NCBI GenBank assembly: GCA_035711945.1
Contig: DASTBR010000074.1
Coordinates: 1-39,433, forward strand
Source: Dehalococcoidia bacterium
GTDB lineage: Bacteria; Chloroflexota; Dehalococcoidia; WHTO01
Length of the DNA: 39,433 nucleotides
Direction of reading: 5' to 3'
The position numbers were made by a program, and so were the translations under genes. The notes beneath the pieces were generated by a model. That model did not search any database. It was not told the origin of the DNA and saw only the letters and a program-made list of their open reading frames with translations. Below are positions 8,941 through 31,116 of this stretch, in pieces (position 1 is the stretch's first letter; every line of letters begins with the position of its first letter).

Positions 8941-9004
8941 TCGACCGCGTCGAGCGCAGCCGACGTTGGTAAACCCGAGCAGTTAGTCGGCAAGAAGGAT
9001 GCTT

Positions 9005-14576: not shown

Positions 14577-14927
14577 TCAGACCAGCTCGACCTGCGCGAG
14601 GGAGGCGCCGTCGCCCTTACGTAGACCCAGCTTGGTCAGCCTCGTGTAACCACCACTGCGGTCGGAGTAGCGAGGAGCGATGTCGGTAAAGACTTTGCCG
14701 ACGACGTCAGGGTCGAGCACGAAAGCGAGGGCGCGGCGCCGTGCGGAGACGCTGCCGTCCTTGCCCAGGGTGATCATCTTTTCGGCCAGGCCACGTACTT
14801 CCTTGGCTCGCGCCTCGGTCGTCTTGATGCGGCCATGGCGAAGCAGGTCGGTGACCTGGTTGCGCAGCATAAGAAGCCGGTGGTCGGTCGGCCGGTTTAG
14901 CTTGCGGTGGCCGAGGCGGTGGCGCAT
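14577..14927 (-). CDS. rplQ: 50S ribosomal protein L17
   Basis: MRHRLGHRKLNRPTDHR is the L17 N-terminus. The ATG overlaps the rpoA stop (TGATG). Confidence 0.95.
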   Translation of the reverse strand: MRHRLGHRKLNRPTDHRLLMLRNQVTDLLRHGRIKTTEARAKEVRGLAEKMITLGKDGSVSARRRALAFVLDPDVVGKVFTDIAPRYSDRSGGYTRLTKLGLRKGDGASLAQVELV

Positions 14928-16072
14928 CAGGCCGGCTCTTCTGGCCCGGTTTCGGCGAGGCGGCGAAGCTTGCGCCTGAGCTCAGGGGGCAATTGTGCTG
15001 CCAGGCCCTCGCCAGCGTCGGATTCTTCTTCGTCGTCCGGGGTGAAAGTGGCGGATTCGACGATGTCCTCGTCGAGGCTGGGCGTCTCGTCGGAGTCGCC
15101 GAAGCTTTCAGCGCCGCCGCCGAAGGCGAAGTCACCGAGGTTCTCGGGCTTGATCAGGCCCATGGAGAGAAGCTTGTCCTTGACCTCGTCGTAGGACTTC
15201 TTGCCAAAGTTGCGGATGCCCAGCAGCTCGTCCTCGCTGCGCTCGAGCAGCGCGCCGACGGTCATGATGCCGGTGCGCTTGAGCGAGTTGTAAGCACGGA
15301 CGGACAGGTCCAGGTTCTCAATGGGCATGTTGTACTGATCGGGCGGGAGGATCGAGCCGGAGCCAAGTCCCCTGTCCATCGAGGGCAGCTGGGGACGACC
15401 CAGCTGGCTAAAGAGGGCGAACTGGTTCATGAGGATGTCAGCGCTCTGGCTGAGAGCCTCGATACCCGTCATTGTGCCGTCAGTCCAGATTTCCAGGGTC
15501 AGACGGTCGTAGTCGGTGATCTGGCCGACACGGGTCTTGCCGACCTGGTAGTTGACCTTGCGGACCGGCGTGAAAACCGCGTCTACCGGGATTACACCGA
15601 TGGGCATGCCATCGGTGCTGCCGGCAGGCTGGTAGCCGCGTCCGCGCTCGACATTGAACTCAACGGTCAAGCGGCCCTTGGCTGAGTCAAGCGTGGCAAG
15701 GTGCTGGTCGTTGTTGATGACGTCGTAGTCGGCGGGAACCTCGATGTCGGCGGCGGTTATCTCGCCCTCGCCGCTGTAGTCGAGGTACATCTTAGCCGGG
15801 CGGTCGGAGAGGGCGCGAAGCCGGATCTCCTTCACGTTGAGGAGGAACTGAATCGTGTCCTCTTTGACGTGCTCGATTGTTGAGAATTCGTGCTGAGCCT
15901 GGTCGATGCGAACGCTCGTGATAGCTGCGCCGGGCAGCGAGCTGAGCAGCATGCGGCGCAAAGCGTTACCGAGCGTGACGCCAAATCCGCTTTCGAGCGG
16001 TTCGGCGACGACGCGGGCGTAGGTGTCTGAACTTTCCACTACTTCGATGGTTGGTCTCTGAAGGTCCGTCAA
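14927..16072 (-). CDS. rpoA: DNA-directed RNA polymerase subunit alpha, with an acidic C-terminal tail of about 70 aa
   Basis: Motif EPLESGFGVTLGNALRR. GGGAGGGGGA precedes TTG 16072 (MTDLQRPTIEVVESS). The track start 16171 would overlap rpsD. The tail follows the alpha-CTD (..KLLSMGLIKPE). Confidence 0.9.
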   Translation of the reverse strand: MTDLQRPTIEVVESSDTYARVVAEPLESGFGVTLGNALRRMLLSSLPGAAITSVRIDQAQHEFSTIEHVKEDTIQFLLNVKEIRLRALSDRPAKMYLDYSGEGEITAADIEVPADYDVINNDQHLATLDSAKGRLTVEFNVERGRGYQPAGSTDGMPIGVIPVDAVFTPVRKVNYQVGKTRVGQITDYDRLTLEIWTDGTMTGIEALSQSADILMNQFALFSQLGRPQLPSMDRGLGSGSILPPDQYNMPIENLDLSVRAYNSLKRTGIMTVGALLERSEDELLGIRNFGKKSYDEVKDKLLSMGLIKPENLGDFAFGGGAESFGDSDETPSLDEDIVESATFTPDDEEESDAGEGLAAQLPPELRRKLRRLAETGPEEPA

Positions 16073-16115
16073 GGAAATCCCCCTCCCTGGGGAAGAAAGG
16101 CCGCTCTGGCGACCT

Positions 16116-16745
16116 TTAGCGTGAGTAGTACTCGACAATAACTGCCGGGTCGAATTGCACCTCAGCGTCAACGAGCGTGGGCTCGGCCGAGACGTTGCCC
16201 GTCATGGCCCCTTCGTTGACAGAAACCCAGGAGGGCTTAGAGGCGCTTCCGATACCGCCCTCCTGAATGGTGAACGCTTCGCTGGCGCGCCCACGGTTGG
16301 TCCAGCCGACTTCGTCGCCAACCTTCACCTGGTAGGACGGAATGTTGACTTTCCGCCCGTTGACCGAGATCAGGCCGTGGCGCACGAACTGGCGGCCCTG
16401 GTTGCGAGAGTCGGCAAACCCCATGCGCATGACGACGTTGTCGAGACGCATCTCGAGCGTGCGGACAAGGTTCTCGCCGGTGATGCCCGGGCGGGCGACC
16501 GCATCCTCGTAGTAGCTCTTGAACTGGCGTTCGAGGATGCCGTAGACCGAGCGCGCCTTGTTCTTCTCTTTCCACTGCAGGCCGCGGTCGGAGACCTTAC
16601 GCCTGCGGGCGAGCTTCTGGCCGGGCGGGTTGTTGCGGCCCGGCTTTTCGATCGTGCAGTTGGTTATGCACTTGTCGCCCTTGAGGAAGAGCTTCATGCC
16701 GTGTCGCCGGCAGATCCGGCAGACGGCTCCTCTGTATCGCGCCAT
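16116..16745 (-). CDS. rpsD: 30S ribosomal protein S4
   Basis: The MARYRGAVCRICRR N-terminus and the S4 domain. Confidence 0.95.
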   Translation of the reverse strand: MARYRGAVCRICRRHGMKLFLKGDKCITNCTIEKPGRNNPPGQKLARRRKVSDRGLQWKEKNKARSVYGILERQFKSYYEDAVARPGITGENLVRTLEMRLDNVVMRMGFADSRNQGRQFVRHGLISVNGRKVNIPSYQVKVGDEVGWTNRGRASEAFTIQEGGIGSASKPSWVSVNEGAMTGNVSAEPTLVDAEVQFDPAVIVEYYSR

Positions 16746-16762
16746 TTTTCTGCTCTACCCTC

Positions 16763-17158
16763 CTAGACGCGCCGGCGCTTGGGAGCGCGACAACCGTTGT
16801 GTGGGATTGGGGTCACGTCGCGAATACTGACGACGTTGAGGCCAGCAGCCTGAAGCGAGCGAATCGCTGCCTCGCGTCCACTGCCGGGACCGCGGACCAT
16901 GACCTCGATCTGGCGAAGCCCGTGCTCCATGGCGCGGCGCGCGGCCTGTTCGGCGGCCAGCTGGGCGGCGTAGGGTGTGCTCTTGCGAGAGCCCTTGAAG
17001 CCGGCCTGGCCGGCGCTGCCCCAGGCGAGAACGGCGCCGCTAGGGTCAGTGAGAGTAATCAGGGTGTTGTTAAACGTTGACTGGATGTAGGCGCGGCCGG
17101 CCGGCACGACCTTGCGCTCGCGCCTGCGGCCACGTGTCTTTCTCTTAGGTTCAGCCAT
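16763..17158 (-). CDS. rpsK: 30S ribosomal protein S11
   Basis: Motifs [14 protein letters not shown] and [14 protein letters not shown]. Confidence 0.95.
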
Positions 17159-17174
17159 CTAGCCCCTCAAACTC

Positions 17175-17558
17175 CTACTTCTTAGCTGCGGTGCGCCGCT
17201 TGCCAGCGACGGTCTTGGCCGGACCCTTGCGGGTGCGGGCGTTGGTGCGCGTGCGCTGACCGTGTACCGGTAGACCGCGGCGATGCCTGATGCCGCGGTA
17301 GCAATTGATCTCGATTAGTCGCTGAATGTTCTGGCGCAGCTCGCGGCGCAGGTCGCCTTCGACGTTGTAATTGCGGTCGATGAGGTCGCGGATACGGGCG
17401 ACCTCGTCGTCGGTCAGGTCACGCACGCGGGTAGCGGGGTTAACGTTGGCGGCTTGGACGATCTTGTTGGCTGAGGTTGGGCCGATCCCGTAGATGTAGC
17501 GAAGGGAGATGTCGACTCTCTTTTCGCGGGGGATGTCTACGCCGGAAATACGCGCCAT
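17175..17558 (-). CDS. rpsM: 30S ribosomal protein S13
   Basis: [16 protein letters not shown]-terminus. Confidence 0.95.
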
Positions 17559-17573
17559 AGTTCCTCGGTTCCC

Positions 17574-17687
17574 CTAACCCTGCCGCTGCTTGTGCTTCGG
17601 GTTCGAACAGATGACGCGAACGACCCCGCGCCGGCGGATGACCTGGCACTTCTCACAGCGTGGCTTGGCTGATGCGCTTACTTTCAT
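17574..17687 (-). CDS. rpmJ: 50S ribosomal protein L36 (zinc-binding form)
   Basis: Not in the ORF track because it is too short. My translation is [37 protein letters not shown], in the conserved position between infA and rpsM. Confidence 0.9.
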
Positions 17688-17738
17688 TGGTTTCCAGAAG
17701 GCAGCGACGGGAGCGATGCACCCGAGGGGCTGCCGGCC

Positions 17739-17957
17739 CTACCTGAACCGGTAAGTTATCCGTCCGCGCGTCAGGTCGTAGGGTGAAAGCTCAACGAGAA
17801 CGCGGTCTCCGGGGAGTACTTTGATGTAGTTGAGGCGGATCTTGCCCGAGATGTGAGCCAGTACCTCGTGTCCGTTAGGCAGCTCCACCTTGAACATTGC
17901 GTTGGGCAGAGGCTCCTTGACGGTACCTTCTACTTCAATTGCTTCTTTCTTTGCCAT
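17739..17957 (-). CDS. infA: Translation initiation factor IF-1
   Basis: [26 protein letters not shown], with an S1-like fold. Confidence 0.95.
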
Positions 17958-18034
17958 GCGGCGCGACCAGCGCCAGTAACCTCCCCTGATCCGAGCACAA
18001 CCTGAACCGGCCTTGCGACAAGGATAACGAGTCT

Positions 18035-18064
18035 ATTATGGCAAGATTCGGCGGAAATTGCGAA
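18035..18064 (-). promoter_or_regulatory. Candidate internal sigma-70 promoter for infA and downstream genes
   Basis: On the minus strand: TTCGCA (18064-18059), an 18-nt spacer, then TGC-CATAAT (extended -10; hexamer 18040-18035). Confidence 0.35.
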
Positions 18065-18075
18065 TCGCCACGGTG

Positions 18076-18879
18076 TTAGTCCAGCGCTGAGAGCGTGAGC
18101 TCTCGATCGTCGACTTCCGTGGGCTTGTTCGTGGTCAACAGGATGGGCCCGTACTCGCCGACGGCGACGGTGTGCTCGAAGTGGGCCGAGAGGCTGCCGT
18201 CAGCGGTGCGGACGGTCCAGTCGTCGGGATCACGAGTGGTGCGCCAGGTACCGAGGTTGAACATGGGCTCAAGGGCGAGAACCATGCCCTTGCGCAGCTT
18301 GATGCCGCGGCCCGGCTCCCCATAGTTGGGCACCTGGGGCTCCTCGTGCATCTCGCGGCCAACACCATGGCCGACATATTCGCGGACGAGGCCATAGCCG
18401 CGAACCTCGGCGACCTGTTGGATGGCGGCGCCGACGTCACCCAGTCGATTGCCGGGCGCAACCTGCTCGATGCCGACGTCAAGCGCCTGCTTCGTGGCTG
18501 CGACTAGCTCGCTGACTTCCTGCGGGACGTGGCCGAGGGCGACAGTGCGGGCGCTGTCGGCGACGAAGCCGCGATGAGTGCAACCCAGATCGATGGAGAC
18601 GACGTCCCCATCGCGAAATGCGCGCCGGCTGGGAATGCCGTGGACGATCTTGTCGTTGACGGAGATGCAGACGGTCGCCGGATAACCGTTATAGCCGAGG
18701 AAGGTTGGAACTACGTCCCTGGCGGTAAATTCGGCGCGGACGAGATCGTCGATGTCTGTCTCTCGAACGCCGGGCTGGACGGCAGCCATGACGATGTCGA
18801 GAACATCGGCAAGAATTCTACCGGCCTCGCGCATGATAGCGACTTCGGAATCAGACTTTATTTCGATCGCCACTACCAA
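18076..18879 (-). CDS. map: Type I methionine aminopeptidase
   Basis: IEIKSDSEVAIMREAGRIL N-terminus and the metal-ligand context (DLGCTHRGFVADSA, EYVGHGVG, ALEPM). TTG start. About 18 extra C-terminal residues. Confidence 0.9.
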   Translation of the reverse strand: MVVAIEIKSDSEVAIMREAGRILADVLDIVMAAVQPGVRETDIDDLVRAEFTARDVVPTFLGYNGYPATVCISVNDKIVHGIPSRRAFRDGDVVSIDLGCTHRGFVADSARTVALGHVPQEVSELVAATKQALDVGIEQVAPGNRLGDVGAAIQQVAEVRGYGLVREYVGHGVGREMHEEPQVPNYGEPGRGIKLRKGMVLALEPMFNLGTWRTTRDPDDWTVRTADGSLSAHFEHTVAVGEYGPILLTTNKPTEVDDRELTLSALD

Positions 18880-19510
18880 TCTCCAGTGCGTTCAGAAGCT
18901 CACGGGTTACATCCTCGAGCGATCCTTCGCCGTTGATCGTCGTGAACTTCCCCTGCTTTCTGTAATAGTCAACCATATCGGCCGGGGGTTTCATCGATTC
19001 GAGGCGAGCGCGGACGACTTCTGGACGGTCGTCGTCGCGCTGATAGAGCTCCCCACCACAGCGCTGACAGCGGCCGGGTTGCGAACCGGGTGGAAGGCCG
19101 GTGATGTTGCCACAGTCGCGGCACATCCAACGATTGCTGAGCCGTGCGACAGACTCATCGTCGGACACTTCGATGAGGACGACTCTATCGACGCGGCTGT
19201 CCGAACTCTCGAGGGCGGTGTCGAGCGCCCGGGCCTGGGCGAGGTTGCGAGGAAAGCCGTCAAAGATGACGCCCTTCGCAGTGTCGGGCTCAGCCAGCCG
19301 TGTGAGCAGCATCTGAACCGTGATCTCGTCCGGCACGAGGGCGCCGCGGCTCATGTACTGTTGAGCGGTCTTGCCGAGCTCCGTGCCTGCTTTGACATTG
19401 GCGCGAAAAAGGTCGCCGGTGGCTATGTGCACCCAGCCTTTGGTAGCGGCTACGCGCTGTGCTTGTGTGCCTTTGCCGGCGCCGGGGGAGCCAAGAAGGA
19501 CGAGGTTCAT
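18851..19510 (-). CDS. adk: Adenylate kinase (zinc-lid form)
   Basis: MNLVLLGSPGAGKGTQ P-loop at ATG 19510. The lid is CRDCG...CQRCGG. The 88-codon upstream extension in the track is Arg/Pro-rich and implausible. Confidence 0.9.
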   Translation of the reverse strand: MNLVLLGSPGAGKGTQAQRVAATKGWVHIATGDLFRANVKAGTELGKTAQQYMSRGALVPDEITVQMLLTRLAEPDTAKGVIFDGFPRNLAQARALDTALESSDSRVDRVVLIEVSDDESVARLSNRWMCRDCGNITGLPPGSQPGRCQRCGGELYQRDDDRPEVVRARLESMKPPADMVDYYRKQGKFTTINGEGSLEDVTRELLNALEIGSGDRNKV

Positions 19511-19584
19511 GCCCGGAGGAGGGCAAGCGGCGACGCGGGCGCGCGCAAGGCGAGGAGAAGCAGGAGCCGCATTTGGGGCATCGC

Positions 19585-20943
19585 TTAGCGGATGAAGCCT
19601 TCGTAGTTGCGCATCAGCAACTGCGACTCCAGCTGCTTCATCGTGTCGAGCACGACGGCGACGACGATCAGCATGCCCGTGGCGCTGATGCGCAGGGAGT
19701 TGTTGACGTCGACAAAGAGGCTGGCGAAGTAAGGCACAACGGCGACAAATCCGAGGAAGAACGCGCCAGCCCACGTTATGCGCGTGAGGACGCGGATGAT
19801 GTACTCGTGCGTGGGTCTTCCAGGACGGATGCCGGGGATGAAGCCACCCTGCCGCTGGAGGTTATCGGCCAGGTTCTGCTGCTGGAAGATCACCATCGTG
19901 TAGAAGAACGTGAAGATGACGACAAGGATGAACGTCAACAGCCAATAGAGGCCTCGTTCAGGGTTCGTGATATCGGCGATGAAGTCTGCAAAGTCCTGGA
20001 AGAAACCGCTCTCACCAGAGGCTATGGCGCCGGCGGCAGCGCTGGGGAAGATCATGATCGAGAAGGCGAAGATGAGCGGGATCATGCCGGCTGAGTTGAC
20101 GCGGAGCGGGATGTGAGTCGCCCCGGTCTGCCGGTACATTCGGCCACCGCGGAACATGCTCCTGGCGTACTGAACGGGAATACGGCGCTGGGCTTCCTGG
20201 AAGAGCACTATCAGCGCGACAAGGGCGATTGAAACGACGGCGAGGAGGAAGAGCCCGCCAAAGCCGACGTCGGAGACGACGCCCTGGCCGATGAAGCCCG
20301 GCAAACCGGCGACGATGCCGCCGAAGATGATGATCGATATGCCGTTGCCCACGCCGTTCTCGGTGATCAACTCACCGATCCAGACGAGGAACATCGTGCC
20401 GGCGGTCATCGAGAAGAGGATGGTGAGGGTCGGTAACAATTCCTCTCCACTGAAGCCGATGCTGATGACCTCGCGGCCGGTGCCGCTGTTGAGGAGCAGT
20501 ATCTGGCCGTAGCCCTGGATGAAGGACACCGGCACGCACAGCCAGTGGGTGTAGATCTGGATGCGCTGGCGGCCGTATTGACCCTCCTGTGAGAGCGCAC
20601 GCAGACGCGGCACCATCGGGATCAGAAGCTGCATGATGATCGACGCGGTCACGTAGGGATAAACGCCCAGGCTGGCGACGCTCAGGTTCCTCAGCGCCCC
20701 GCCGCTGAAGACATCAAGGAAGCCCAGCACGGCATCGCCTTCGAAGGCGGCGTCGAGGACCTCACGGTCGACGCCGGGGAGGGGGACGTGGGCGATGAAG
20801 CGGAAGACGACAAGCATCCCGAACGTAAAGAGAAGCTTGCGCCGGATGTCCGGCTGCTGGAAGGCATCGACCAGCGCCGCCAGGAGGCGGTTCTGGCTTG
20901 CCCTAGTCTGCGCTCTCGGTGCTGCTGCTGCTCTGGTTGTCAT
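19585..20943 (-). CDS. secY: Preprotein translocase subunit SecY
   Basis: 452 aa with about 10 TM spans, in the conserved position after rplO. Its start overlaps the rplO 3' end by 41 nt. Confidence 0.9.
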   Translation of the reverse strand: MTTRAAAAPRAQTRASQNRLLAALVDAFQQPDIRRKLLFTFGMLVVFRFIAHVPLPGVDREVLDAAFEGDAVLGFLDVFSGGALRNLSVASLGVYPYVTASIIMQLLIPMVPRLRALSQEGQYGRQRIQIYTHWLCVPVSFIQGYGQILLLNSGTGREVISIGFSGEELLPTLTILFSMTAGTMFLVWIGELITENGVGNGISIIIFGGIVAGLPGFIGQGVVSDVGFGGLFLLAVVSIALVALIVLFQEAQRRIPVQYARSMFRGGRMYRQTGATHIPLRVNSAGMIPLIFAFSIMIFPSAAAGAIASGESGFFQDFADFIADITNPERGLYWLLTFILVVIFTFFYTMVIFQQQNLADNLQRQGGFIPGIRPGRPTHEYIIRVLTRITWAGAFFLGFVAVVPYFASLFVDVNNSLRISATGMLIVVAVVLDTMKQLESQLLMRNYEGFIR

Positions 20944-21388
20944 CCTTCTCCAGGAGGCTGACCGATCCGCCAGCCTTTTCGATCTTGCTACGAGCTGAGG
21001 CCGAAACCCGATGGGCGGTTACGTTAAGTTTCCGGGTCAACTCGCCGTTGCCAAGGACTTTGATAGGTAGACTGCGCTTGACGACGCCGCGCTCACGCAG
21101 GGCTTCGACCGTAACATCGGTACCGAGGTCGAGGCGCTCGAGAGTCGCCAGATTGACGACTGCGTACTCCTTGCGAAAGCGGTTGGTGAATCCACGTTTG
21201 CGGCCGAGGCGGAGGATCAGCGGTAGCTGACCGCCCTCGAAACCGGGGCGAATGTCGTTGCCCGATCGAGCCTTTTGGCCCTTGAGGCCCTTACCGGAGT
21301 AAGTGCCGGTGCCGCTGGCGTTGCCGCGTCCGAGACGCTTTCGCTTGTGGCGGGCGCCGCGTGGCGCCTTGAGTTCGTGTGGCCTCAC
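20903..21388 (-). CDS. rplO: 50S ribosomal protein L15
   Basis: Motif KRKRLGRGNASGTGTYSGKGLKGQKARSG. Confidence 0.95.
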   Translation of the reverse strand: MRPHELKAPRGARHKRKRLGRGNASGTGTYSGKGLKGQKARSGNDIRPGFEGGQLPLILRLGRKRGFTNRFRKEYAVVNLATLERLDLGTDVTVEALRERGVVKRSLPIKVLGNGELTRKLNVTAHRVSASARSKIEKAGGSVSLLEKDDNQSSSSTESAD

Positions 21389-21391
21389 TTC

Positions 21392-21577
21392 TTACCTCTG
21401 CTCGTCCACGGTCACGAGATGGCTGACTTTGTTGAGCATCCCGCGGATCGAGGGATTGTCTGGTTGGCTGACCGTGTGGCCGAGCCGGCGGAGGCCCAAA
21501 GCGCGCACCGTCTGGCGCTGGTCCTCCGGATAGCCGATCAGGCTCTTCTTGAGGGTGATCGCCAGGCCCGCCATCAC
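21392..21577 (-). CDS. rpmD: 50S ribosomal protein L30
   Basis: Motif [25 protein letters not shown]. Confidence 0.9.
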
Positions 21578-22233
21578 TCAGCCTCCTTGACATCTGAGGC
21601 TGGTTCCACGCTGTCAGGCTGGGCCGCCATTTCGGGAGGGACTTCGTCCTGAGCAGCTTCGGCCTGCGGCTCACCACCGTCTGCCTCCGCGCTCGACTCA
21701 TCGCGAGGGGCCGAGCGTCCGTTGACGCGTCGCCCGACGCCGCGCAGCGCAAGGGCCTCGTCCGGGTCGCGGAGAGCAGCCAGGCCGTAGAGGGTTGCTT
21801 TGACGACGTTGACCGGGTTGTTTGAGCCAAGTGATTTGGTCAGGATGTCGCGAATACCGGCCAGCTCCACTACGGCACGTACACCGCCGCCGGCGATGAC
21901 GCCGGTACCGGGAGAGGCGGGCTTCATCAGAACCTTGGCGGCGCCGAACACGGAGAAGTACTCGTGAGTGATTGTGGAGCCGCGCATGGGCACGCGAATG
22001 AGGTTGCGCTTGGCGATCGTGACGCCCTTGCGAATTGCCTCAGGGACCTCGCGAGCTCGACCAACCCCGGCGCCGACGTGGCCCTTGCCATCACCGACGA
22101 CGACGACAGCGGTGAAGCTGAAGCGGCGGCCGCCGCTGACGACCTTGGCCACGCGGTTGATGTAGACGACCTTCTCAGTGAGCTCGAGGCCGCCCGGATC
22201 GATTCTGTCCTTAACTGGAGTAACTGCTGCCAT
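21574..22233 (-). CDS. rpsE: 30S ribosomal protein S5, with an acidic C-terminal tail of about 50 aa
   Basis: Motifs [16 protein letters not shown] and [13 protein letters not shown]. The tail begins after ..ALRGV. Confidence 0.95.
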
Positions 22234-22241
22234 CTGCCTGC

Positions 22242-22601: not shown

Positions 22602-22614
22602 CTCACTCTCCCGA

Positions 22615-23151: not shown

Positions 23152-23169
23152 CTTGATTTCAGGCCCTGG

Positions 23170-23568
23170 CTACCAGATGTAGCAGAGCACCTCTCCTCCG
23201 ATTCGTTTGCGCCACGCGTCCTGTCCGGTCATCACGCCCTGGGGCGTCGAGAGGATAGCGACGCCAAGGCCCCCGTAGACCCTCGGGATCTCGCCCTTCT
23301 GGACGTAGACGCGCAATCCGGGCTTGCTGACCCTCTGAAGGCCGCTGAGCATGGGCTCGCGTCGGCCGGTATAGCGCAGCTTGACCTTGAGATGACTCCG
23401 CGGACCGTCGTCGGCTACCTCGTAGCCTTCGATAAAGCCTTCGCTCTTGAGAACGTCGGCGATTGCCAGCTTCAGCTTAGAGGCGGGAATCGAGACGTTG
23501 TCGTGGCGCGCGCTTACGGCGTTGCGGATGCGCGTAAGCATGTCGGCGATGGGGTCAGTTACGTTCAT
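23170..23568 (-). CDS. rpsH: 30S ribosomal protein S8
   Basis: [17 protein letters not shown] at ATG 23568 gives 132 aa. The track extension to 23700 overlaps rpsN. Confidence 0.95.
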
Positions 23569-23593
23569 TGATGGTCCTCCGGTACCCCAGCTT

Positions 23594-23779
23594 CTACCAA
23601 CTCGACTTCTTGATGCCGGGAAGCTGTCCAAGCAACGCGCGCTCCCGGAAACAGATTCGACACATGGCGAACTGGCGAATGTAGGCCCGCGAGCGGCCAC
23701 ATACCAGGCACCTGTTTTTCTTGCGTGAGCTGTACTTCGGAACTTTCTTGGCCTTGAGCATCAAAGCTAGTCGCGCCAT
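23594..23779 (-). CDS. rpsN: 30S ribosomal protein S14 type Z (zinc-binding)
   Basis: 61 aa with CLVCGR...CRICFR. Confidence 0.95.
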
Positions 23780-24337
23780 CTATCCCTCCTGAGTCCTGGC
23801 GAAGGGCATCCCAAGCATTTCGAGGAGGCGCCTGCCTTCGTCGTCGGTTTTCGCGGTGGTGACGAAACTGATCTGCATGCCGCGTATGCGGTCGATCTTG
23901 TCGTAGTCGATCTCGGGGAAGATCAACTGCTCGCGCACGCCGAGGCTGTAGTTGCCGCGGCCATCAAAGGCGTGGCGAGCGACGCCGCGGAAGTCGCGGA
24001 TGCGCGGCAGCGCGGCGCTGAGCAGCCGGTCCATGAACTCGTACATGCGCGGGCCGCGAAGGGTGACGCTCATGCCGATAGCGTTGCCCTCGCGGACCTT
24101 GAAGTTCGAGATGGACTTCTTGGCCTTGTTGATGATGGGCCGCTGGCCCGTGATCGTCTGCAGGTCGGCCGAAGCCGCGTCCAGGGCGCGTGCATTAGTC
24201 AGGGCCTCGCCCAGCCCGATGTTGATGACGACCTTCTCGAGCCGGGGCACCTGCATGACGTTCTTGTATCCGAACTCTTTGGTCAGGGCCGGCTTGATCT
24301 CGGCGTCGTAGCGTGTCTTGAGACGTGGTTCAGGCAT
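23780..24337 (-). CDS. rplE: 50S ribosomal protein L5
   Basis: Motifs [15 protein letters not shown] and [11 protein letters not shown]. Confidence 0.95.
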
Positions 24338-24345
24338 AAGGGTTC

Positions 24346-24660
24346 CTAGTCGATGTCTCCGTCGCAGCTCTTGCAGTAGCGTCCTTTGCCGCCGTCATCG
24401 CGAATTCGAAAACCTACCCTTGTGGCTTTGCCACAGGCGGGGCAAACGATCCTCACGTTGGAGATGGCGACCGGCGCTTCCTTCTCGATGATGCCGCCGG
24501 GTTGCTGAAGGGAGCGTTGGCGCATGTGGCGCTTCACCATGTTCACGCCGGTAACGATGACGCGACCTTCATCGGGCAGGACGACGCGGACCGCGCCGGT
24601 CCTGCCGCGATCCTTGCCGGTCATGACCATGACGTTGTCGTTCTGTTTGATTTTTCGCAT
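24346..24660 (-). CDS. rplX: 50S ribosomal protein L24 (with a Cys4 motif)
   Basis: KOW motif [13 protein letters not shown]. The C-terminal part carries CPACGK...YCKSCDG. Confidence 0.95.
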
Positions 24661-25029
24661 CTAGATCACCTCCGGCGCGAGGGAGACGATCTTCGTGAAG
24701 CGCCTGTCGCGAAGCTCACGAGCGACGGGCCCGAAGATTCTTGTGCCGCGCGGGTTTTCTTTGTCAGAGAGGATCACAGCGGCGTTCTCGTCGAACCGGA
24801 TGTGTGTGCCGTCCGCGCGAGAAAACGGCTTGGCGGTGCGAACGATGACAGCACGGACGACCTCGCCCTTCTTTACGCCCGCTCCCGGTTGGGCAAGCTT
24901 GACCGAGGCGACGATGGTGTCGCCGACGCGGGCATAGCGACGGCGCGATCCACCGGAGACCTGGATGCACATGATCTCTCGTGCGCCGGAGTTGTCGGCG
25001 ACGCGCAGCCTTGTGTACTGCTGGATCAC
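24661..25029 (-). CDS. rplN: 50S ribosomal protein L14
   Basis: [19 protein letters not shown]-terminus. Confidence 0.95.
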
Positions 25030-25658
25030 TCGCTTTTCTCCTCCGGCGTACTGTCTTCGTCGGCTTCTTCGACGGCCTCGGGAGCGCCCTCAGCGGGAGC
25101 AGCGGCTGAACTGCGCCGCGCACGAGTAGCCCTGGCTTTCGGCGCCTCGTCGGCGGGGCCTTCAGCCGGCTCTTCGCTGGATTCGGCCTTCTCCACGGGA
25201 ACTTCTGGAGCTTCGACTTCAGGTACTTCCACTTCCTCCACCGCTTGCTCGACCTCGGGGACTTCAACAGGCGCTTCGACATCGGCGGCAGCTGGTGCCG
25301 TTACTTCTGGGACGGGCTGCTCCTTACGCCGCTGCTCCAGCTCTTCCACAACAGTGCGGTCGATATCGGATGGTTTGGTCTCGGCGACCTCGTGGCGCTG
25401 GACGATCTCGACGAGCCGCCAGCGCTTGAGGCGACTCAGCGGCCGTGATTCTCTGATCCGAACAAGGTCACCGACGCTGGCCTCGTTTTCTTCGTCGTGG
25501 GCCTTGTAGCGGGCGGTGCGGCGCAGGACCTTCTTGTAGATGCGGTGACGACGGAAACTGTCAACGGCAACAACGACGGTCTTGTCCATGCGGTCGCTGA
25601 CAACGACGCCAACGCGTTCCTTGCGATGTCCTTCGGTTGCGGTTTGTTGGTCCTGCAT
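25026..25658 (-). CDS. rpsQ: 30S ribosomal protein S17, with an acidic C-terminal extension of about 115 aa
   Basis: The S17 core is [16 protein letters not shown]...YKAHDE...[22 protein letters not shown] Glu/Pro/Val/Ala-rich tail follows. Confidence 0.9.
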
Positions 25659-25659
25659 A

Positions 25660-25878
25660 TCAGCTGCCTTCCGCGCTCAACTGGCGGCCGCGCTTGACTG
25701 TCTCCAGCCGCGCTACCTGGCGGCGCACCTTGCGCAGCTCGCGGTAGTTTTCGAGCTGCCGGGTGGACGATTGAATCCTCAAGTCAAACAGCCGTCGCCG
25801 CGCCTCTTCGATCTCGTTGTCGAGATCGCTCTCGGAGAGCGTGCGGAAGCGTTCGGCTTCGCTGTTCTGCCTGGTCAT
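25660..25878 (-). CDS. rpmC: 50S ribosomal protein L29
   Basis: The motif [34 protein letters not shown] and its position between rplP and rpsQ. Confidence 0.9.
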
Positions 25879-26300
25879 GACTGCGATCCCTCGTGCTCGC
25901 GGGCAACGAACCTTGTCTCGAGCGGGAGCTTGTGAGAAGCGCGCTCGAGGGCTTCTTTGGCGAGCTCACCGCGGACGCCGGCAATCTCAAAGAGCATGCG
26001 GCCGGGCTTCACTACTGCAACCCAGTGGTCGGGGTTGCCTTTGCCGCTGCCCATCCTGGTTTCGGCCGGCTTCGCGGTTACGGACTTGTCGGGGAAGATG
26101 CGGATCCAGACCTTGCCGCCACGCCGCAAGGAGTGAGTTATCGCACGGCGGGCGGCTTCGATCTGGCGGCTGTCGATCCAGCCGCGGCCGACGGCCTGGA
26201 GGCCGAACTCGCCGAAGTTGATCGTGGTGCCGCCGCTGGCCATGCCACGCATGCGCCCGCGATGAACCTTGCGATGCTTGGTGCGTTTCGGTTGCAGCAT
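25875..26300 (-). CDS. rplP: 50S ribosomal protein L16
   Basis: [20 protein letters not shown]-terminus. Confidence 0.95.
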
Positions 26301-27583
26301 TATTCGCTCTTAGTCCGCCTCTTGCGGCGTCCGTTGGTCGGCTTGGCCTTCTCAGCGGGCTCTTTCGAAGCCTCCGCGGCCTCGTCGTTGGCGGCAGGCG
26401 TCTCGACGGCAGCCTCCACAGCCTCGCTGTCGGCGGTCGGCGTTTCGACGGCCTCCGTAGCCTCTTCGTCGGCGGCGGGCGTTTCGACGGCTTTCGTAGC
26501 CTCTTCGTCGGCGGCAGGCGTTTCGACAGCCTCCGCAGGTTCCGCGGCCGCAGTCGCTTCTGTTTCTGCTTCGGGGGCGGCTGCTTCCACCTTCTCGATG
26601 GCGGCGTCTTCGTGTGTTGAGGCGTCGGCATCGCCGCCTGGAGCCGGCTCCCGGCCGGCGTCGGCCTGCGTGGCGACGGTCTCGCCGGCGGCCTCGGCTT
26701 CGGTCAAGACGCCGCCGAGAGATTCAGTGCGCTCTTCGGCACCCAACGACTCGTCGCCGGGCGCGGCTTCCTCGGCGACTGCCTTGCGGCGGCCGCGCGT
26801 CTTAGGGGGAGGAGCAGGCTGGCCGGTAGCCTCGGCGAGCGCTTCCGCAGTTGGCTCGGGTGCTTCCAGCTCGGGGCCGCGCACGGCCTCAGGAGCGATC
26901 GCGGGCGCGGGGCCCTCACGGGTTTCCTCTTGTGGGGCTGCGGCAGCGGCGCGCTCAGGAAGGATCTCGCCTTTGTAGATCCAGACCTTGACGCCGATCT
27001 GGCCGAATGTTGTGCGGGCTTCGGCTGTGCCGTAGTCGATGTCGGCACGGAGCGTGTGAAGGGGGACCCGGCCCTGCATTTCCTTGTCACGGCGCGACAT
27101 CTCGGAGCCGCCGAGCCTGCCGCCAACCATGATGCGCACGCCTTGGGCGCCGCGTTGCATGGTGCGCTGGGCGGTCTGCTTCATGGCGCGGCGGTGGGCG
27201 ACGCGACGCTCCAGCTGGTCGGCGACGCTGCGCGCGACGAGTCGGGCGTCGAGCTCGGGAACGTTAATCTCGACGATGTTGACTCGGACTTTCTTGGCCG
27301 TGAGCTTCTCGAGCTCTTTGCGCAGGTCCTCGACGTTCTTGCCCTGACGGCCGATGACGATGCCGGGGCGCGAGGTGCGGATGGTGACCGAGACCTGGTT
27401 GGCGTTGCGATCGATGTCGACGCCGGAGATGCCGGCGTCGCGCATCGATTCAATGCGACGGCGGATCTGGACGTCCTCGTGGACGAGCTGGGTGTAGGTG
27501 GTGCGCTTGTCGCTGTACCACTTGCTCTGCCAGTCCTTGATGACCCCGATGCGGAAACCGATCGGATGAACCTTCTGCCCCAC
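26300..27583 (-). CDS. rpsC: 30S ribosomal protein S3, with a C-terminal low-complexity extension of about 210 aa
   Basis: [23 protein letters not shown], with KH and S3-C domains up to ..[12 protein letters not shown]. An Ala/Glu/Pro/Thr-rich tail follows and ends in [10 protein letters not shown]. Confidence 0.9.
26371..26545 (-). repeat. 39-42-bp in-frame tandem repeats within the S3 tail (about 4.5 units)
   Basis: Plus-strand units GGCGTTTCGACGGCCTCCGTAGCCTCTTCGTCGGCGGCG at 26439 and 26478, with diverged copies at 26397 and 26517. They encode [13 protein letters not shown]. Confidence 0.8.
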
Positions 27584-27919
27584 CTATGCCTCCTCCTCGA
27601 CGACGATCGTCACGTGGCTGAAGCGGCGCAGCCGAGGGGCAACGCGTCCGCGGGATCGCGCCTTGTAGCGCTTCAGCTTCAAACCCTCGTCGGCGTACGC
27701 GTGCTTCACGTAGAGGTCACGTGACGAGAGTGCGTGGTTGTTCTCGGCGTTGGAAGCCGCCGAGTGTACGACCTTGGCGATCTCACGGGCGTGCGGCGAC
27801 GCCATGAACTGAAGGGTGGCGATGGCTTCATCGATGGTCTTGCCCTTCAGCTCGTCCAGTATGAGCCGCACTTTGCGCGGCGAAACTCTCAGGTTCCTGG
27901 CGACAGCCGTTACTTCCAT
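27584..27919 (-). CDS. rplV: 50S ribosomal protein L22
   Basis: Motif ARNLRVSPRKVRLILDELKGK. Confidence 0.95.
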   Translation of the reverse strand: MEVTAVARNLRVSPRKVRLILDELKGKTIDEAIATLQFMASPHAREIAKVVHSAASNAENNHALSSRDLYVKHAYADEGLKLKRYKARSRGRVAPRLRRFSHVTIVVEEEA

Positions 27920-27923
27920 TGGC

Positions 27924-28214
27924 TCAGGTTCTCCTCAGCGTGGCTGTCTTCTCGGAGCGCCCGGCGTGGCCGCGGAAGGTTCGGGTCAAGGCGAATTCGC
28001 CGAGCTTGTGGCCGACCATGTTCTCGGTGATGAAAACCGGGACGTGGCGACGGCCATCGTGGACAGCAATCGTCAGGCCGACCATCTGCGGCATCACCGT
28101 AGATGACCTGGACCAGGTGCGGATGATCTGCTTGGCGCCGCTGCGCTGAGCCGATTCCACGCGCTTCATGAGCTTCTCTTCGACGAAAGGACCCTTCTTG
28201 GCCGAACGCGACAT
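27924..28214 (-). CDS. rpsS: 30S ribosomal protein S19
   Basis: Motifs [11 protein letters not shown] and [27 protein letters not shown]. Confidence 0.95.
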
Positions 28215-29044
28215 TACTTATTCCTCCGGCGGACGATGAACTTACCGCTGGTCTTGTTGCGCCTGGTGCGGTAACCGAGGGTCGGCTTGCCCCAGGGCGT
28301 TTTGGGACCGGGAAGGCCGATGGGCGCGCGGCCCTCACCACCACCATGTGGGTGGTCGGCTGGGTTCATGACCGTGCCGCGCACAGTAGGGCGCCTGTTG
28401 CGCCAGCGGTTGCGCCCGGCCTTGCCGATCTTGATGTTCTGGTGCTCGACGTTGCCGACCTGGCCGACGGTCGCGAGGCAGTCCGAGTGGACGCGCCGCA
28501 TCTCGCCGGAGGGCAGGCGCAGAAGACTGAAATCGCCTTCCTTGGCCATGAGCTGGGCGCCGGCGCCGGCGCTGCGCACCATCTGGGCGCCCTTGCCCAG
28601 GTGCATCTCGACGCTGTGGACGACGGTGCCTGTCGGGATCTGGCGCATGGGTAAAGCGTTGCCCGGGGCGATGTCAGCGTTGGGGCCGGACATCACCGTG
28701 TCGCCGACCTTGAGACCGAGGGGCGAAAGGATATAGCGCTTATCGCCATCTGCGTAGTAGATGAGGGCCAGGCGGGCTGAGCGATTGGGGTCGTACTCGA
28801 CCGCGGCCACACGCCCGGGCACGCCGAACTTGTCGCGGCGCTTGAAGTCCACGTCGCGGACGCGGCGCTTGTGGCCTCCGCCCTGGTGGCGGACGCTGAT
28901 GCGCCCCTGGTTGTTGCGACCGGCCGCCTTCTTTGAGGCACGCAGGAGCGCCTTCTCGGGACGGCTCTTGGTGACCTCCTCGAAGGTGTAGCCGCTCATG
29001 CCGCGGCGGGATGGCGATGTCGGTTTGAACTGCTTAAGTGGCAT
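28214..29044 (-). CDS. rplB: 50S ribosomal protein L2
   Basis: Motifs GGGHKRR and [14 protein letters not shown]. Confidence 0.95.
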
Positions 29045-29047
29045 CTA

Positions 29048-29344
29048 TCACACGCCCTCGAACAGAGTTATGGTCTCGCCCGCGGCGAGGGTGACAATCG
29101 CCTTCTTCCAGGCGCGGGTGTAGCCCCATTGGCGACCGCGACGGCGACGCTTGGGCTTCATGTGCATGGTGTTGACGCCGGTAACGCGGACGTCGAAGGC
29201 GCGCTCGACGGCTTCCTTGATCTGGAGCTTGTTGGCCGCCTTGTCGACCTCGAAGACGTACTGGCTGGCGCCCGCCAGCGCAGTGGACTTCTCGGTGACG
29301 ATCGGCTTCTTGATGACGGTGTAGGAGTGAAGCTGCTTGGGCAT
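29048..29344 (-). CDS. rplW: 50S ribosomal protein L23
   Basis: The motif IKKPIVTEKS and its position between rplD and rplB. Confidence 0.9.
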   Translation of the reverse strand: MPKQLHSYTVIKKPIVTEKSTALAGASQYVFEVDKAANKLQIKEAVERAFDVRVTGVNTMHMKPKRRRRGRQWGYTRAWKKAIVTLAAGETITLFEGV

Positions 29345-30138
29345 TAGCTCTCCTCACCGGCCTTGGGTCTTGCCGCGCGGCGCTTAGGCGCGGCCTTCGC
29401 CGCGGTCGGCTGCTCGACCTTCTTCGCCGGGGCGCGGCGTCGCGCCGGTTTGGCGGGCGCTTCGGTCCTGGCTTCGACCGCGGGCTGCGAAGCCGCAGCT
29501 CGGCGGTTCGTCGCTCGTTCGCCGCCCCAGAGCGCCTCCGCGACGCGGACGGCGTCCGTGGTCATGACCAGGCTGTGGTGGTTGAGTATGTCAGCAACGT
29601 TCAGGTGATTGGCGGGGATGACCGAGGCGCCGCGCAGGTTGCGGGCGCTCAGCCGAACGTTGGAGTCAGGGGCAGCCGTGACGAGGAGCGACGAACGCTC
29701 GACGCCGATCCCGTTCAAGAGATCAGACAGACCCTTCGTAGTCGGCGATTCGGGCATGGCGTCGAGGATGTGCAGGTCGCCGTCGACAACCTTTGCCGAG
29801 AGCGCCGAACGGATCGCGAGGCGCTTGATGCGCTTGGGAATGACCTGCGAGTAGCTGCGAGTCTTCGGACCGAAGGCAACGCCTCCGCCTGTGAGCACGG
29901 GGGAGCGGATCGTGCCGATGCGGGCGCGTCCGAGGCCCTTCTGGCGGCGCACCTTGGCGCTGCTGCCACGTACCTCGCCTCGTGTCTTAGTGTTGGCGAC
30001 GCCACTGCGGCGGGCGTTCATCTGGGCAACGTAGACCTGGTGGAGCACAGCACGGTTGGGCTCGACGCCAAAGACTTCGTCGGCGACGTCGATTTTCTTC
30101 ACTTCCTTGCCTGCGGCGTCAATCAGCGAGAGTTTCAT
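29344..30138 (-). CDS. rplD: 50S ribosomal protein L4, with an Ala/Lys/Arg/Pro-rich C-terminal tail of about 55 aa
   Basis: Motif [30 protein letters not shown]. The tail follows ..VRVAEALWG. Confidence 0.95.
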
Positions 30139-31112
30139 CAGCTCACCGCCCTGGTAGTGCGCTTCACGCGCACGACACCGTTGACAGGTCCGGGCACGGA
30201 ACCGCGCACGAGCAGCAGGTTCTTGTCGATGTCGGAGCGAACGACAACGAGGTCGCGCACGGTGACCTGCCGCGCACCCATATGGCCAGCCATCTTCTGG
30301 CCCTTAAGAACGTGGCCGGGGGTCGTGCCGGCGCCGATCGAGCCAGGGGCGCGGTGGCGGTCTGATTGTCCGTGGGTCTTGGGTCCGCCATGGAAGCCGT
30401 GGCGCTTGACGCCACCGGCGAAGCCTCGACCCTTTGATTTAGACGTCACATCGACGCGTTCGCCGGCCTGGAAAATGCTCGTCGTGACTTCCTGGCCAAC
30501 GCTGAATGCCGCGGAGTCGTCGACGCGGACTTCGCGAAGGTGCCGGAAGTCTCCGTTGGCTCCAGCGAGGTGGCCTTTGGCGGGTTTGTTAAGGTTGCGG
30601 CCCTCGCCCCAACCGAGCTGGACGGCGCTATAGCCGTCGGTTTGCGGCGTGCGAATCATCGTGACGACGCATGGTCCGAGCTCGATCGCAGTAACGTTCT
30701 GCACAGTCCCGGCGTCGTCGAAGACCTGTAGCATGCCGAGCTTCTTGCCGAAGAGCGCAGGGATACCATCCGGCGCCTGTTCACGCGTGGAGGCAGAACG
30801 ACGGCCCGAGGCGCGGGGTGCTTTGGCTGCCGCCTCTTCGTCCTCTTCGGTCTCGGCGGCATCCTCGACGTCAGTCTCCGCAGCATCATCGGCCGCTTCT
30901 TCGTCTGATGGCTCAGAGTCCTCGGCAACGGGTTCTTCTTCCGGCGCCGCAGCGACTGCGGGCGCACCCTCCGGCGCCTCGTCGGCAGCGGATTCTATGT
31001 CGGCGGCGGGCTCCTCGGCGGACGCAGCGTCACTCTCGGCGGCGCCAGTCTCGGCGGCGGCTTCGGGTGGAGCCGGTTGCTCTTCGTCTCGCTGCTTCTC
31101 TTCGTCGTTCAT
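30138..31112 (-). CDS. rplC: 50S ribosomal protein L3, with an acidic N-terminal extension of about 110 aa
   Basis: The L3 core starts at [15 protein letters not shown]. No ATG/GTG/TTG lies between ATG 31112 and that core. ATG 31112 is 4 nt after the rpsJ stop. Confidence 0.85.
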
Positions 31113-31116
31113 CTGC

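Follow-up and report, generated by a model that had tools for sequence, protein, structure and literature searches.

We find that several proteins encoded by the S10/spc/alpha ribosomal protein gene cluster of an uncultured Dehalococcoidia bacterium (phylum Chloroflexota) carry long, mostly acidic extensions at one terminus. The stretch analysed, called the window below, comprises the 39,433 nucleotides of contig DASTBR010000074.1 of assembly GCA_035711945.1. The tailed proteins are the ribosomal proteins S3, S17, L3, S5, L4 and L15 and the alpha subunit of RNA polymerase (RNAP), RpoA. The feature is real, it is a trait of the lineage and not peculiar to this genome, the tails are very probably translated, and they are not part of an acidification of the halophile type. 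Bacterial ribosomal proteins are mostly seen as compact and near-invariant, and those lineage-specific extensions that are known in them tend to be basic and to bind RNA. The present case differs in the phylum, the size of the additions (about 216 residues on S3 in the window and up to 250 residues in relatives), their acidity, the tail of RpoA with its helix, and the visible dynamics of duplication.

The cluster lies entirely on the minus strand of the window, whose GC content is about 63-66%. It runs in the order S12-S7-EF-G-S10-L3-L4-L23-L2-(S19)-L22-S3-L16-(L29)-S17-L14-L24-L5-(S14)-S8-L6-L18-S5-(L30)-L15-SecY-Adk-Map, continues after Map with (IF1, L36)-S13-S11-S4-RpoA-L17 and ends with TruA, L13 and S9. 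The S10-spc-alpha gene order of the relatives is identical. The nearest named homologues of S3, RpoA and L3 come from metagenome-assembled genomes (MAGs) annotated as "Dehalococcoidia bacterium", and L5 is about 70% identical to the best species-representative genomes, which are Chloroflexota MAGs among the matches listed. S3, S17, S5 and L4 pass the Pfam gathering cut-offs with their whole-protein scores and cover the profiles almost end to end (Ribosomal_S3_C and KH_2 for S3, Ribosomal_S17, Ribosomal_S5 and S5_C, and Ribosomal_L4). RpoA passes with RNA_pol_A_bac, RNA_pol_L and RNA_pol_A_CTD (positions 9-65 of 67). The Pfam match of L3 is limited to profile positions 205-281 of 369; the PDB homologues span the entire L3 core, aa 117-322. 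RpoA starts with the TTG codon at 16072, which is preceded by the Shine-Dalgarno sequence GGGAGGGGG. The start given in the list of open reading frames (ORFs), TTG 16171, is an upstream over-extension, as are the listed starts of S8 and Adk, and none of the three represents a true N-terminal tail.

The limits of the cores were set by the Pfam domains and by phmmer searches against all PDB chains, and the residues beyond were taken as extension. Tail charges were computed for pH 7, and all of the following positions are on the minus strand. In S3 (uS3, gene 26300-27583) the core extends from aa 1 to about 211-221 of 427; the PDB chains have 202-275 aa, and the mycobacterial alignment reaches 268 at most. 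The C-terminal acidic extension (26300..26950) then comprises about 216 aa and the stop codon, with a net charge of -32. S17 (uS17, gene 25026-25658), whose core is aa 8-95 of 210 according to both Pfam and PDB, has a C-terminal acidic extension of about 122 aa plus stop (25026..25394, charge -25), in which a helix-like proximal segment is followed by a Pro/Glu/Val tract, an Arg patch and, at the end, acidic residues. L3 (uL3, gene 30138-31112) is extended at the N-terminus. Bacterial PDB chains of about 204-227 aa align to aa 117-322 of 324, and codons 1-117 (30762..31112) encode an acidic extension of about 117 aa with a charge of -33, in which a conserved MNDEEKQ start is followed by a variable acidic tract and by an Arg-rich patch adjoining the core. 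S5 (uS5, gene 21574-22233; Pfam core aa 18-163 of 219) ends in an acidic extension of about 53 aa plus stop (21574..21735, charge -9). L4 (uL4, gene 29344-30138; Pfam core aa 16-199 of 264) ends in a basic, Ala/Arg/Pro/Lys-rich extension of about 59 aa plus stop (29344..29523, charge +10). The RpoA core (gene 14927-16072) covers aa 2 to about 306-312 of 381, where PDB chains reach 329 at most, and is followed by 77 aa plus stop (14927..15160, charge -15), an acidic, probably disordered linker and then a conserved helix. Finally L15 (uL15) has a short Ser/Asp/Glu tail of 15 aa plus stop (20903..20950, charge -4), which a preliminary description of this DNA had missed.

The tails are rich in Ala, Glu, Pro, Asp and Val. 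The cores that bear them have charges of +9 to +16 and pI values (isoelectric points) of 10.4-10.8, with the exception of RpoA, whose core is itself acidic. From core to whole protein the net charge therefore changes from +16 to -16 in S3, from +14 to -20 in L3 and from +9 to -16 in S17. The preliminary description, which had been made from the letters alone, gave extension lengths of about 110 (L3), 210 (S3), 115 (S17), 50 (S5), 55 (L4) and 70 aa (RpoA), and the core limits from Pfam and PDB show that these were correct. It also called the added segments acidic, with L4 more basic, which agrees with the net charges, and it noted short basic patches, which are indeed present at the end of S3, as ELRRKLRRL in RpoA and as KRRAARPK in L4. 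As a separate observation, S3, L4 and S17 end alike, with a basic patch and then ...KSE, ...GEES and ...EEKSE, respectively (ends at 26303, 29347 and 25029, minus strand); the corresponding ends in relatives are ...AKSE, ...SEES and ...EKTE. The likeness could be chance or a common C-terminal signal.

By several lines of evidence the tails are very probably translated. With the long forms, the genes follow each other closely: the distance is 4 nt between S10 and L3, -1 for L3-L4, L4-L23 and S3-L16, and -4 nt for S17-L14. The tail ends thus coincide with stop/start overlaps, a pattern typical of coupled translation, and without its extension L3 would leave a gap of about 350 nt inside an otherwise gap-free operon. 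In the nucleotide alignment with the two closest loci (L083 and L084) all 27 gaps are divisible by three. The ratio of nonsynonymous to synonymous substitution rates (dN/dS; Nei-Gojobori) is 0.06-0.30 in the tails. Moreover, all tails are kept in close relatives from at least six independent assemblies, which stem from JGI (3300062131, 3300049824), NCBI (GCA_009377665.1, GCA_040902555.1), ENA (ERZ25039469) and Logan runs. In these relatives L3 has 289-331 aa, L4 263-289, S3 379-406, S17 212-297, S5 about 213-230 and RpoA 372-381; the acidic S5 tail measures 64 aa in locus L165 and 55 aa in L167. Long ORFs also run over the tails on the plus strand (25893-26978, 26930-27724, 29575-30633 and 30649-31365). 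These are most likely chance frames of GC-rich low-complexity DNA, in which opposite-strand frames have 0-1 stops.

The start of L3 deserves a closer look. Two gene calls give an L3 protein without extension, the window's own P0242 and NCBI's P0251 of GCA_040902555.1. Both have 208 aa, begin at the core with a non-canonical ATC/ATH codon and leave 350-390 nt uncalled. Upstream of the short call, however, the frame is open in both genomes from an ATG directly 3' of the S10 stop, and in the window (30762-31112) as in GCA_040902555.1 (locus L168, 5610-6000) the uncalled stretch is an open, conserved acidic frame that begins MNDE(E/D)KQ. An N-terminus of the form M[ND]E[EKR][ED]KQ is found in eight of the nine long-form L3 relatives listed, and the ninth, P0241, is cut at the N-terminus. 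The variants of this peptide are MNDEEKQ, MDEKEKQ, MDEREKQ and MEEREKQ. In the window gene no canonical start codon lies in frame between codon 1 and Met127, and a start at Met127 is disfavoured because the conserved GKKLGM strand would be lost. The earlier statement that each extension is in frame with no alternative stop or start thus stands for the frame, with gaps in multiples of three, but for the starts it is true of canonical codons only, given the ATC/ATH calls of L3.

To place the tails in a wider context we measured the residues beyond the aligned cores in 167 loci and counted tails of at least 30 aa as long. The loci came from a SecY scan of metagenomes and an L5 scan of genomes (relatives at no more than 65-70% identity, among the matches listed); the close relatives above were obtained separately by protein look-ups. 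In other phyla (40-54 loci per protein, largely Firmicutes) the tail of S17 has a median length of 2 aa and a maximum of 5 aa; the corresponding values are 0 and 11 for L4, 7 and 28 for S5, 0 and 23 for L15, 10 and 46 for RpoA, and 2 and 17 for the N-terminus of L3. Hence no locus there has a long tail on S17, L4, S5, L15 or the L3 N-terminus, and only one of 43 has one on RpoA (46 aa). Long S3 tails do occur in other phyla, at 13 of 49 loci, with a maximum of 106 aa and mostly basic. Within the Chloroflexota, the Anaerolineae (7 loci) have short tails apart from one L15 of 85 aa and one S17 of 33 aa. The remaining Chloroflexota in the survey, MAGs of Dehalococcoidia, Thermomicrobiales, Chloroflexia and Limnocylindria, have long tails on RpoA at 46 of 53 loci, on S3 at 32 of 46, on S17 at 25 of 51, on L15 at 28 of 90 (reaching 113 aa), on S5 at 14 of 74 and on L4 at 7 of 38. 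No long tail was found in these genomes on L2, L23, L24, L18, S4, S11, S10, L5, L6, S13 or L22; the exceptions outside the main set are one L14, one L16 and three L17. With tails at a few termini and nearly none elsewhere, the additions are restricted to ends that permit them, namely the C-termini of S3, S17, S5, L15, L4 and RpoA and, rarely, the N- or C-terminus of L3 and the C-terminus of L17.

The closest database homologues give the same picture. All of the best 120 RpoA homologues have lengths of 353-453 aa, and all of the best 120 S3 homologues extend at least 27 aa beyond the core (median 55 aa; at least 100 aa in 22). The N-terminal tail of L3 is limited to the window's clade and a few others. 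In four other Dehalococcoidia (P0261, P0282, P0288 and P0308) L3 carries an acidic tail of 80-95 aa at the C-terminus in place of the N-terminus, and one of these has clear EEEAPEAVT-type repeats. An apparent 250-aa N-terminal extension of L3 in locus L094 was discarded as a low-complexity cross-match to the S17 tail of the same locus. The lengths of different tails vary largely independently: across 44 Chloroflexota loci most pairs of proteins show a weak correlation (rho -0.39 to 0.47), and only L4 with RpoA reaches 0.79. Of these 44, in each of which four or more proteins were measured, only 3 have at least four long tails, one of them being L167, a close relative of the window. Judged from the genomes surveyed, the tails are a trait of the non-Anaerolineae Chloroflexota lineage, with the window's Dehalococcoidia clade at the extreme. 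Two statements of the preliminary description have to be narrowed accordingly. It had spoken of a proteome-level trait; there is a tendency of the lineage that goes beyond a single-gene accident, but it is not uniform over the genome, as the lengths are mostly uncorrelated and few termini are concerned. And it had called six occurrences on the ribosome and RNAP unusual, which holds against textbook bacteria but not against the relatives.

How the tails grow can be seen in the sequences. A tandem repeat of 39 nt (13 codons, 4.5 copies) occupies part of the distal S3 tail (26363..26538, minus strand; Tandem Repeats Finder), and relatives lack this segment, showing in-frame gaps of 57-120 nt in its place. 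In locus L081 the strongest tandem repeats (57/114 nt, with matches of up to 96%) fall within the S17 tail, and so do those of locus L094 (45/87 nt). Tandem repeats and in-frame gaps together make growth by in-frame duplication or slippage directly visible. The composition is far from what the bases alone would give. Compared with random codons drawn from the base composition of the tails, Glu is enriched 4.8-fold, Asp 2.1-fold and Ala 1.9-fold, while Arg (0.33-fold), Gly (0.45-fold) and His (0.1-fold) are depleted and Cys, Trp and Tyr are absent. Pro is enriched too, and aromatic residues as a group are depleted. GC content as the only cause of the tails is thereby ruled out. Among the Chloroflexota tails in the survey all 25 S17 tails and all 46 RpoA tails are acidic. 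For S3, 25 of 32 tails are acidic in Chloroflexota as against 2 of 13 in other phyla. In the surveyed loci, then, the sign of the charge depends on which terminus carries the tail.

The added segments had been described as looking disordered, and structure prediction agrees for the two tails that were modelled, those of S3 and RpoA. Run with family alignments, AlphaFold2 (AF2) predicts neither the S3 tail (predicted local distance difference test, pLDDT, 44-61) nor the RpoA linker (residues 312-355, pLDDT 31-38) to be structured. The tails of L3, S17, S5 and L4 are of similar composition and were judged by it. Embedded in the tails are conserved islands. A notable one is the amphipathic basic motif GEGLAAQLPPELRRKLRRLAE in the RpoA tail (14951..15013, minus strand), where AF2 predicts a helix at residues 356-373 (mean pLDDT about 78 over 361-370). 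Most of 65 aligned RpoA homologues share the architecture of a variable acidic linker (20-100 aa), an amphipathic motif and an acidic end. The motif has the form [DE]LGxLGAxLxxALRxAG in most of the 65 and the form GEGLAAQLPPELRRKLRRLAE in the window's clade; one clade has instead an EWQRxLLxLK element at a different place. An AxAIAxLR-like segment is present in RpoA of Thermomicrobiales and Chloroflexia MAGs, and its tie to the motif is a visual resemblance only.

In S3 a proximal island (aa 223-255, ending in ALAEATGQ; 26819..26917, minus strand) and the Arg cluster that follows it are nearly invariant in the alignment of the eight nearest homologues. Distally the tail varies, and the terminal basic patch is kept in the five closest homologues only. 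In the L3 extension both the N-terminal peptide and the Arg-rich patch beside the core are conserved, and the S17 tails of close relatives again have AETKPxEID..V.EELE.RR in their proximal part and ARATRARRS as an Arg patch. From these islands it follows that a part of each tail is under selection at the level of sequence. Other sub-clades of Dehalococcoidia hold different motifs in their S3 tails (P0027, P0031, P0045, P0049 and P0067, also P0015 and P0044): a Met/Gln/Arg-rich helix-like segment DPMAEMARLQAEMRRMQEEM... in some and, elsewhere, a terminal PPRIPDFAPPITDY(R/K)PS.

The acidity of the tails had been taken as a possible sign of halophily-like surface acidification of the proteome. 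This is not supported. We calculated isoelectric points for the about 46 proteins of the window, a sample of the window and not of the genome. The untailed ribosomal proteins have pI values of 9.8-11.8, and the cores of the tailed ones stay at 10.4-10.8. Of 11 soluble cytoplasmic non-ribosomal proteins nine lie at 4.8-6.1, among them EF-G, Map, Adk, TruA, CofE, hydrolases and the ATPases of ABC (ATP-binding cassette) transporters; the two small proteins of the CGNR zinc-finger and GNAT families lie at 9.3-9.7. In the cytoplasmic non-ribosomal proteins the fraction of Asp and Glu is 0.11-0.16 against 0.06-0.13 for Lys and Arg. Values of 4.8-6.1 with a slight excess of Asp and Glu are ordinary for non-halophiles. 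No other cytoplasmic protein within the window has a tail.

Two solute-binding lipoproteins are a phenomenon apart from the tails. As described before, each carries a poly-acidic linker after the lipobox cysteine: an acidic linker at 9074..9163 (plus strand) in an NMT1-type protein (gene 8999-10075) and a poly-Asp/Glu/Gly linker at 39092..39214 (minus strand) in an SBP_bac_3 protein (gene 38135-39271). Both are acidic along their whole length (pI 4.05, charge -55, Asp plus Glu 0.20 against Lys plus Arg 0.05), and this whole-length acidity might reflect a saline or cation-rich habitat. We looked for the habitat in the literature via the sample and assembly accessions and found none. A further acidic protein is encoded at 10555-12582 (minus strand). 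It is a 675-aa fusion in which an extracytoplasmic function (ECF) sigma factor (Sigma70_r2/r4) is joined to a zf-HC2 anti-sigma domain and to a hydrophobic segment rich in Gly and Ala; about ten Cys-containing acidic repeats of 16 aa follow in tandem (CQEEPPCEDQDPNTEG; a 48-nt repeat in 9.9 copies). Its net charge is -63, and the acidic repeat region is presumed to be extracytoplasmic. Relatives have a similar protein of 554-575 aa at the same place downstream of S9.

We suggest the following explanation, to which we assign a probability of about 0.6. The tails would be genuine, translated, disordered, acidic and non-sticky spacers, which neutralize the basic cores and tether short motifs. Slippage or tandem duplication would keep supplying low-complexity sequence, in frame, at termini that face the solvent. 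On a machine rich in rRNA or DNA only acidic, Pro/Ala-rich and non-aromatic chains would be tolerated, since such chains should neither bind nucleic acid nor aggregate, and selection would keep the chains acidic so that they project from the machine unbound. As a side effect the net charge of the free basic protein would be reversed, from about +9 to +16 to about -16 to -20, and the free protein should then stay soluble before assembly. The chains could also act as flexible spacers presenting the conserved islands as likely binding parts, that is, the Arg-rich patches of S3, S17, L3 and L4, the Pro/Ala motif of S3 and the amphipathic basic helix of RpoA. In RpoA, a linker and a basic amphipathic helix on the DNA-binding C-terminal domain of the alpha subunit (alpha-CTD) suggest an auto-regulation of the contacts with DNA or activators, or the docking of a partner. 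We infer both the solubility and the spacer role.

A number of observations weigh against this explanation. The two short L3 calls are at odds with a translated extension. The low dN/dS deserves little weight, because a protein-guided alignment of low-complexity sequence and saturated dS overstate constraint. The set of tailed proteins is a mosaic between lineages, which speaks against an indispensable common function, and in some other Chloroflexota the tails of S5, L4 and L15 are basic, neutral or mixed. The G+C content at third codon positions (GC3) is 0.60-0.77 in the tails and 0.72-0.86 in the cores, that is, codon bias is weaker in the tails. Tail length correlates with GC for L15 (rho 0.62), RpoA (0.44), S3 (0.33) and S5 (0.25), though not for S17 and L4; together with the weaker codon bias this is compatible with a partly mutational origin. 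It leads to the main rival, according to which the tails are neutral "junk" that slippage produces in a GC-rich genome and that is tolerated without any function, their acidity reflecting the removal of harmful basic or hydrophobic variants. Besides the codon bias and the GC correlations, the rapid turnover of length with its recent tandem repeats, the mosaic distribution with mostly uncorrelated lengths and the fact that tails of different clades cannot be aligned all fit with such an origin. The conserved islands (the helix motif of RpoA, shared by most aligned Dehalococcoidia homologues, the proximal motif of S3, the Arg patches and the N-terminal peptide of L3) do not, nor do the uniform acidity of the S17 and RpoA tails, the excess of Glu, the fact that every close relative has kept the tails and a tail dN/dS below 0.3. 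We regard pure junk as rather unlikely, but it overlaps with the spacer explanation, and the sole difference is whether the retained chain does anything. For the variable parts of the tails the data do not separate tolerated from useful.

An artefact of annotation or assembly, such as untranslated spacers, read-through past lost stops or, in the case of L3, an intergenic leader, is highly improbable. The short L3 calls with their uncalled stretches would fit, and high-GC low-complexity DNA can be open in several frames by chance. However, independent assemblies would hardly share the same architecture, the gaps would not all be in frame, tail ends would not fall on stop/start overlaps with the downstream genes, and the L3 frame would not begin with a conserved ATG-MNDEEKQ right behind the stop codon of S10. 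That salt has driven the whole proteome towards acidity, with the tails as one part of genome-wide acidic surfaces, is likewise very unlikely. The two extracellular lipoproteins and the ECF sigma/anti-sigma fusion would agree with it; the strongly basic ribosomal cores and untailed ribosomal proteins, the ordinary pI of EF-G, Adk, Map, TruA, CofE and the ABC ATPases, the restriction of the acidity to specific termini instead of whole surfaces and the basic L4 tail do not. Dedicated regulatory modules are a more specific proposal, which we consider doubtful. Here the RpoA tail would be a nucleic-acid mimic with a docking helix that gates the contacts of alpha-CTD with DNA or activators, and the tails of S3, S5 and S17 would adjust the entry of mRNA or the spacing, hibernation or condensation of ribosomes. 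The linker-helix-acidic end architecture common to most aligned RpoA tails, with a helix predicted at moderate confidence, points in this direction, as do the conserved Arg patches of S3, S17 and L3 and the regulatory roles proposed for extensions of uS5, bS16 and uS17 near the mRNA entry of the Cutibacterium acnes ribosome (PMC10085706). On the other hand the motif differs between clades, and the tails on ribosomal proteins vary strongly and are missing from many relatives. Equally speculative is the idea that the tails evolved in Chloroflexota in place of separate factors. The RpoA tail would then be a nucleic-acid mimic like delta or sigma region 1.1, whose helix docks on RNAP or a regulator and gates the activity of alpha-CTD, and the ribosomal tails would be intramolecular chaperones, which neutralize the basic cores ahead of assembly, bristles that control the spacing, hibernation or condensation of ribosomes and, through their Arg patches, tethered rRNA anchors. 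The entropic bristles and the condensate tuning of the preliminary description are speculative as well.

Lineage-specific extensions of ribosomal proteins are already established for Actinobacteria, organelles and eukaryotes, and the tails are of this kind, being terminal, in-frame additions to a universal core that are present in related genomes. The preliminary description had raised the possibility that extensions shared by close orthologs are a documented trait and hence known biology. The relatives do share them, but in the literature on ribosomal protein extensions in Chloroflexota or Dehalococcoidia, on acidic tails of bacterial ribosomal proteins and on acidic extensions of RpoA we found no description of the trait; a paper by Cavalier-Smith on ribosomal proteins has no bearing on it. 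Among the PDB matches to L3, S3, S17 and RpoA we identified no Chloroflexota ribosome or RNAP. The nearest known case is that of the Actinobacteria C. acnes and Mycobacterium smegmatis, which have terminal additions on uL4, uS5 and uS17 and a uS3 of 269-275 aa in the PDB. In the 70S ribosome of C. acnes the C-terminal extension of uL4 is solvent exposed, 100 aa longer than in Escherichia coli and without density, and there are further extensions on uS5, uS17, uL22, bS16, uS9 and uL5, some near the mRNA entry site; these additions are often invisible in the maps and, like the tails described here, variable between related species (PMC10085706). A 2026 preprint argues similarly for disordered extensions of IF2. 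By likeness to the uL4 and uS5 of C. acnes, the tails of the window are putatively retained in the mature ribosome and exposed to the solvent. Unlike those of Actinobacteria they are far longer on S3 (about 216 aa), S17 (about 122 aa) and the L3 N-terminus (about 117 aa), they are strongly acidic in Chloroflexota, and RpoA is tailed as well. In our survey, S3 tails of 67-99 aa were seen in two actinobacterial loci (L071, an uncultured Acidimicrobiia MAG, and L055, an Actinomycetes MAG). In the same loci L22 has an open frame past the core, of 437 aa in L071, where a gene fusion or a missed stop may be involved, and of 45 aa in L055.

Acidic tails are also known from the stalk proteins, that is, the tails of eukaryotic and archaeal P1/P2/uL10 and the hinge of bacterial bL12. 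These too are flexible Ala/Glu/Pro-rich acidic linkers with a short conserved terminal binding motif, as in a fly-casting mechanism. They are, however, universal and have a defined partner, the translational GTPases, whereas the tails described here occur on different proteins, vary in themselves, are restricted to a lineage and have no sequence relationship to them. The C-terminal acidic tail of E. coli bS6 is lengthened with Glu by RimK. It is located on the solvent side of the 30S subunit (PMC10085706) and is thus likewise an acidic solvent-side tail on a small-subunit protein, but it has a few to about 40 residues, is partly post-translational and concerns one protein only. On the side of transcription the RpoA tail can be compared with several additions. 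Acidic mimics of nucleic acid occur in the C-terminal region of the delta subunit (RpoE) of Bacillus subtilis and in region 1.1 of sigma70. Being long Asp/Glu-rich disordered segments on an RNAP subunit, these are plausible functional analogues of the RpoA tail; they reside on other subunits than the alpha-CTD, lack the added conserved amphipathic basic helix and show no homology. The alpha-CTD of Helicobacter pylori has an extra C-terminal amphipathic helix, again a lineage-specific addition to this domain. There the helix follows the domain directly, while here an acidic, presumably disordered linker of 40-100 aa lies between, and the lineages are unrelated. In salt-in halophiles (Halobacteria, Salinibacter) the cytoplasmic proteins are acidic as a class, with pI values of about 4-4.6 and Asp plus Glu far above Lys plus Arg. 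The excess of Asp and Glu is common to both, and the extracellular binding proteins of the window are comparably acidic. In the halophiles, though, the acidity covers the surfaces of nearly all proteins, and here it is found in terminal tails of a few.

The tails matter for several reasons. A large and environmentally abundant phylum bears acidic disordered tails of 50-250 residues, and the set of termini that carry them is fixed. Should they be retained in the particles, they would give the surface of each ribosome about 100 additional negative charges and several hundred residues of disordered chain, they would offer a tractable case for the evolution of disordered regions on essential machines by duplication and selection on composition, and they would point to a new interaction of the alpha-CTD. 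There are consequences for annotation, too. Gene callers dispute the start of L3, and marker alignments and length filters in phylogenomics would handle these proteins inconsistently. Most worth following are the conserved motif of the RpoA tail and the position-specific rule of charge.

Two gene pairs outside the cluster may be mentioned. In GCA_040902555.1 (L168, 1293-1918) a toxin-antitoxin-like RHH_1/PIN pair lies directly upstream of S12; the window is without it at this place. The window itself contains, at 5773-7133 (plus strand), an F420-related pair that encodes an F420-dependent NADP oxidoreductase-like protein and the gamma-glutamyl ligase CofE. This pair stands beside genes for a transporter of the major facilitator superfamily and for hydrolases, and it is consistent with the use of F420 in this Chloroflexota bacterium.

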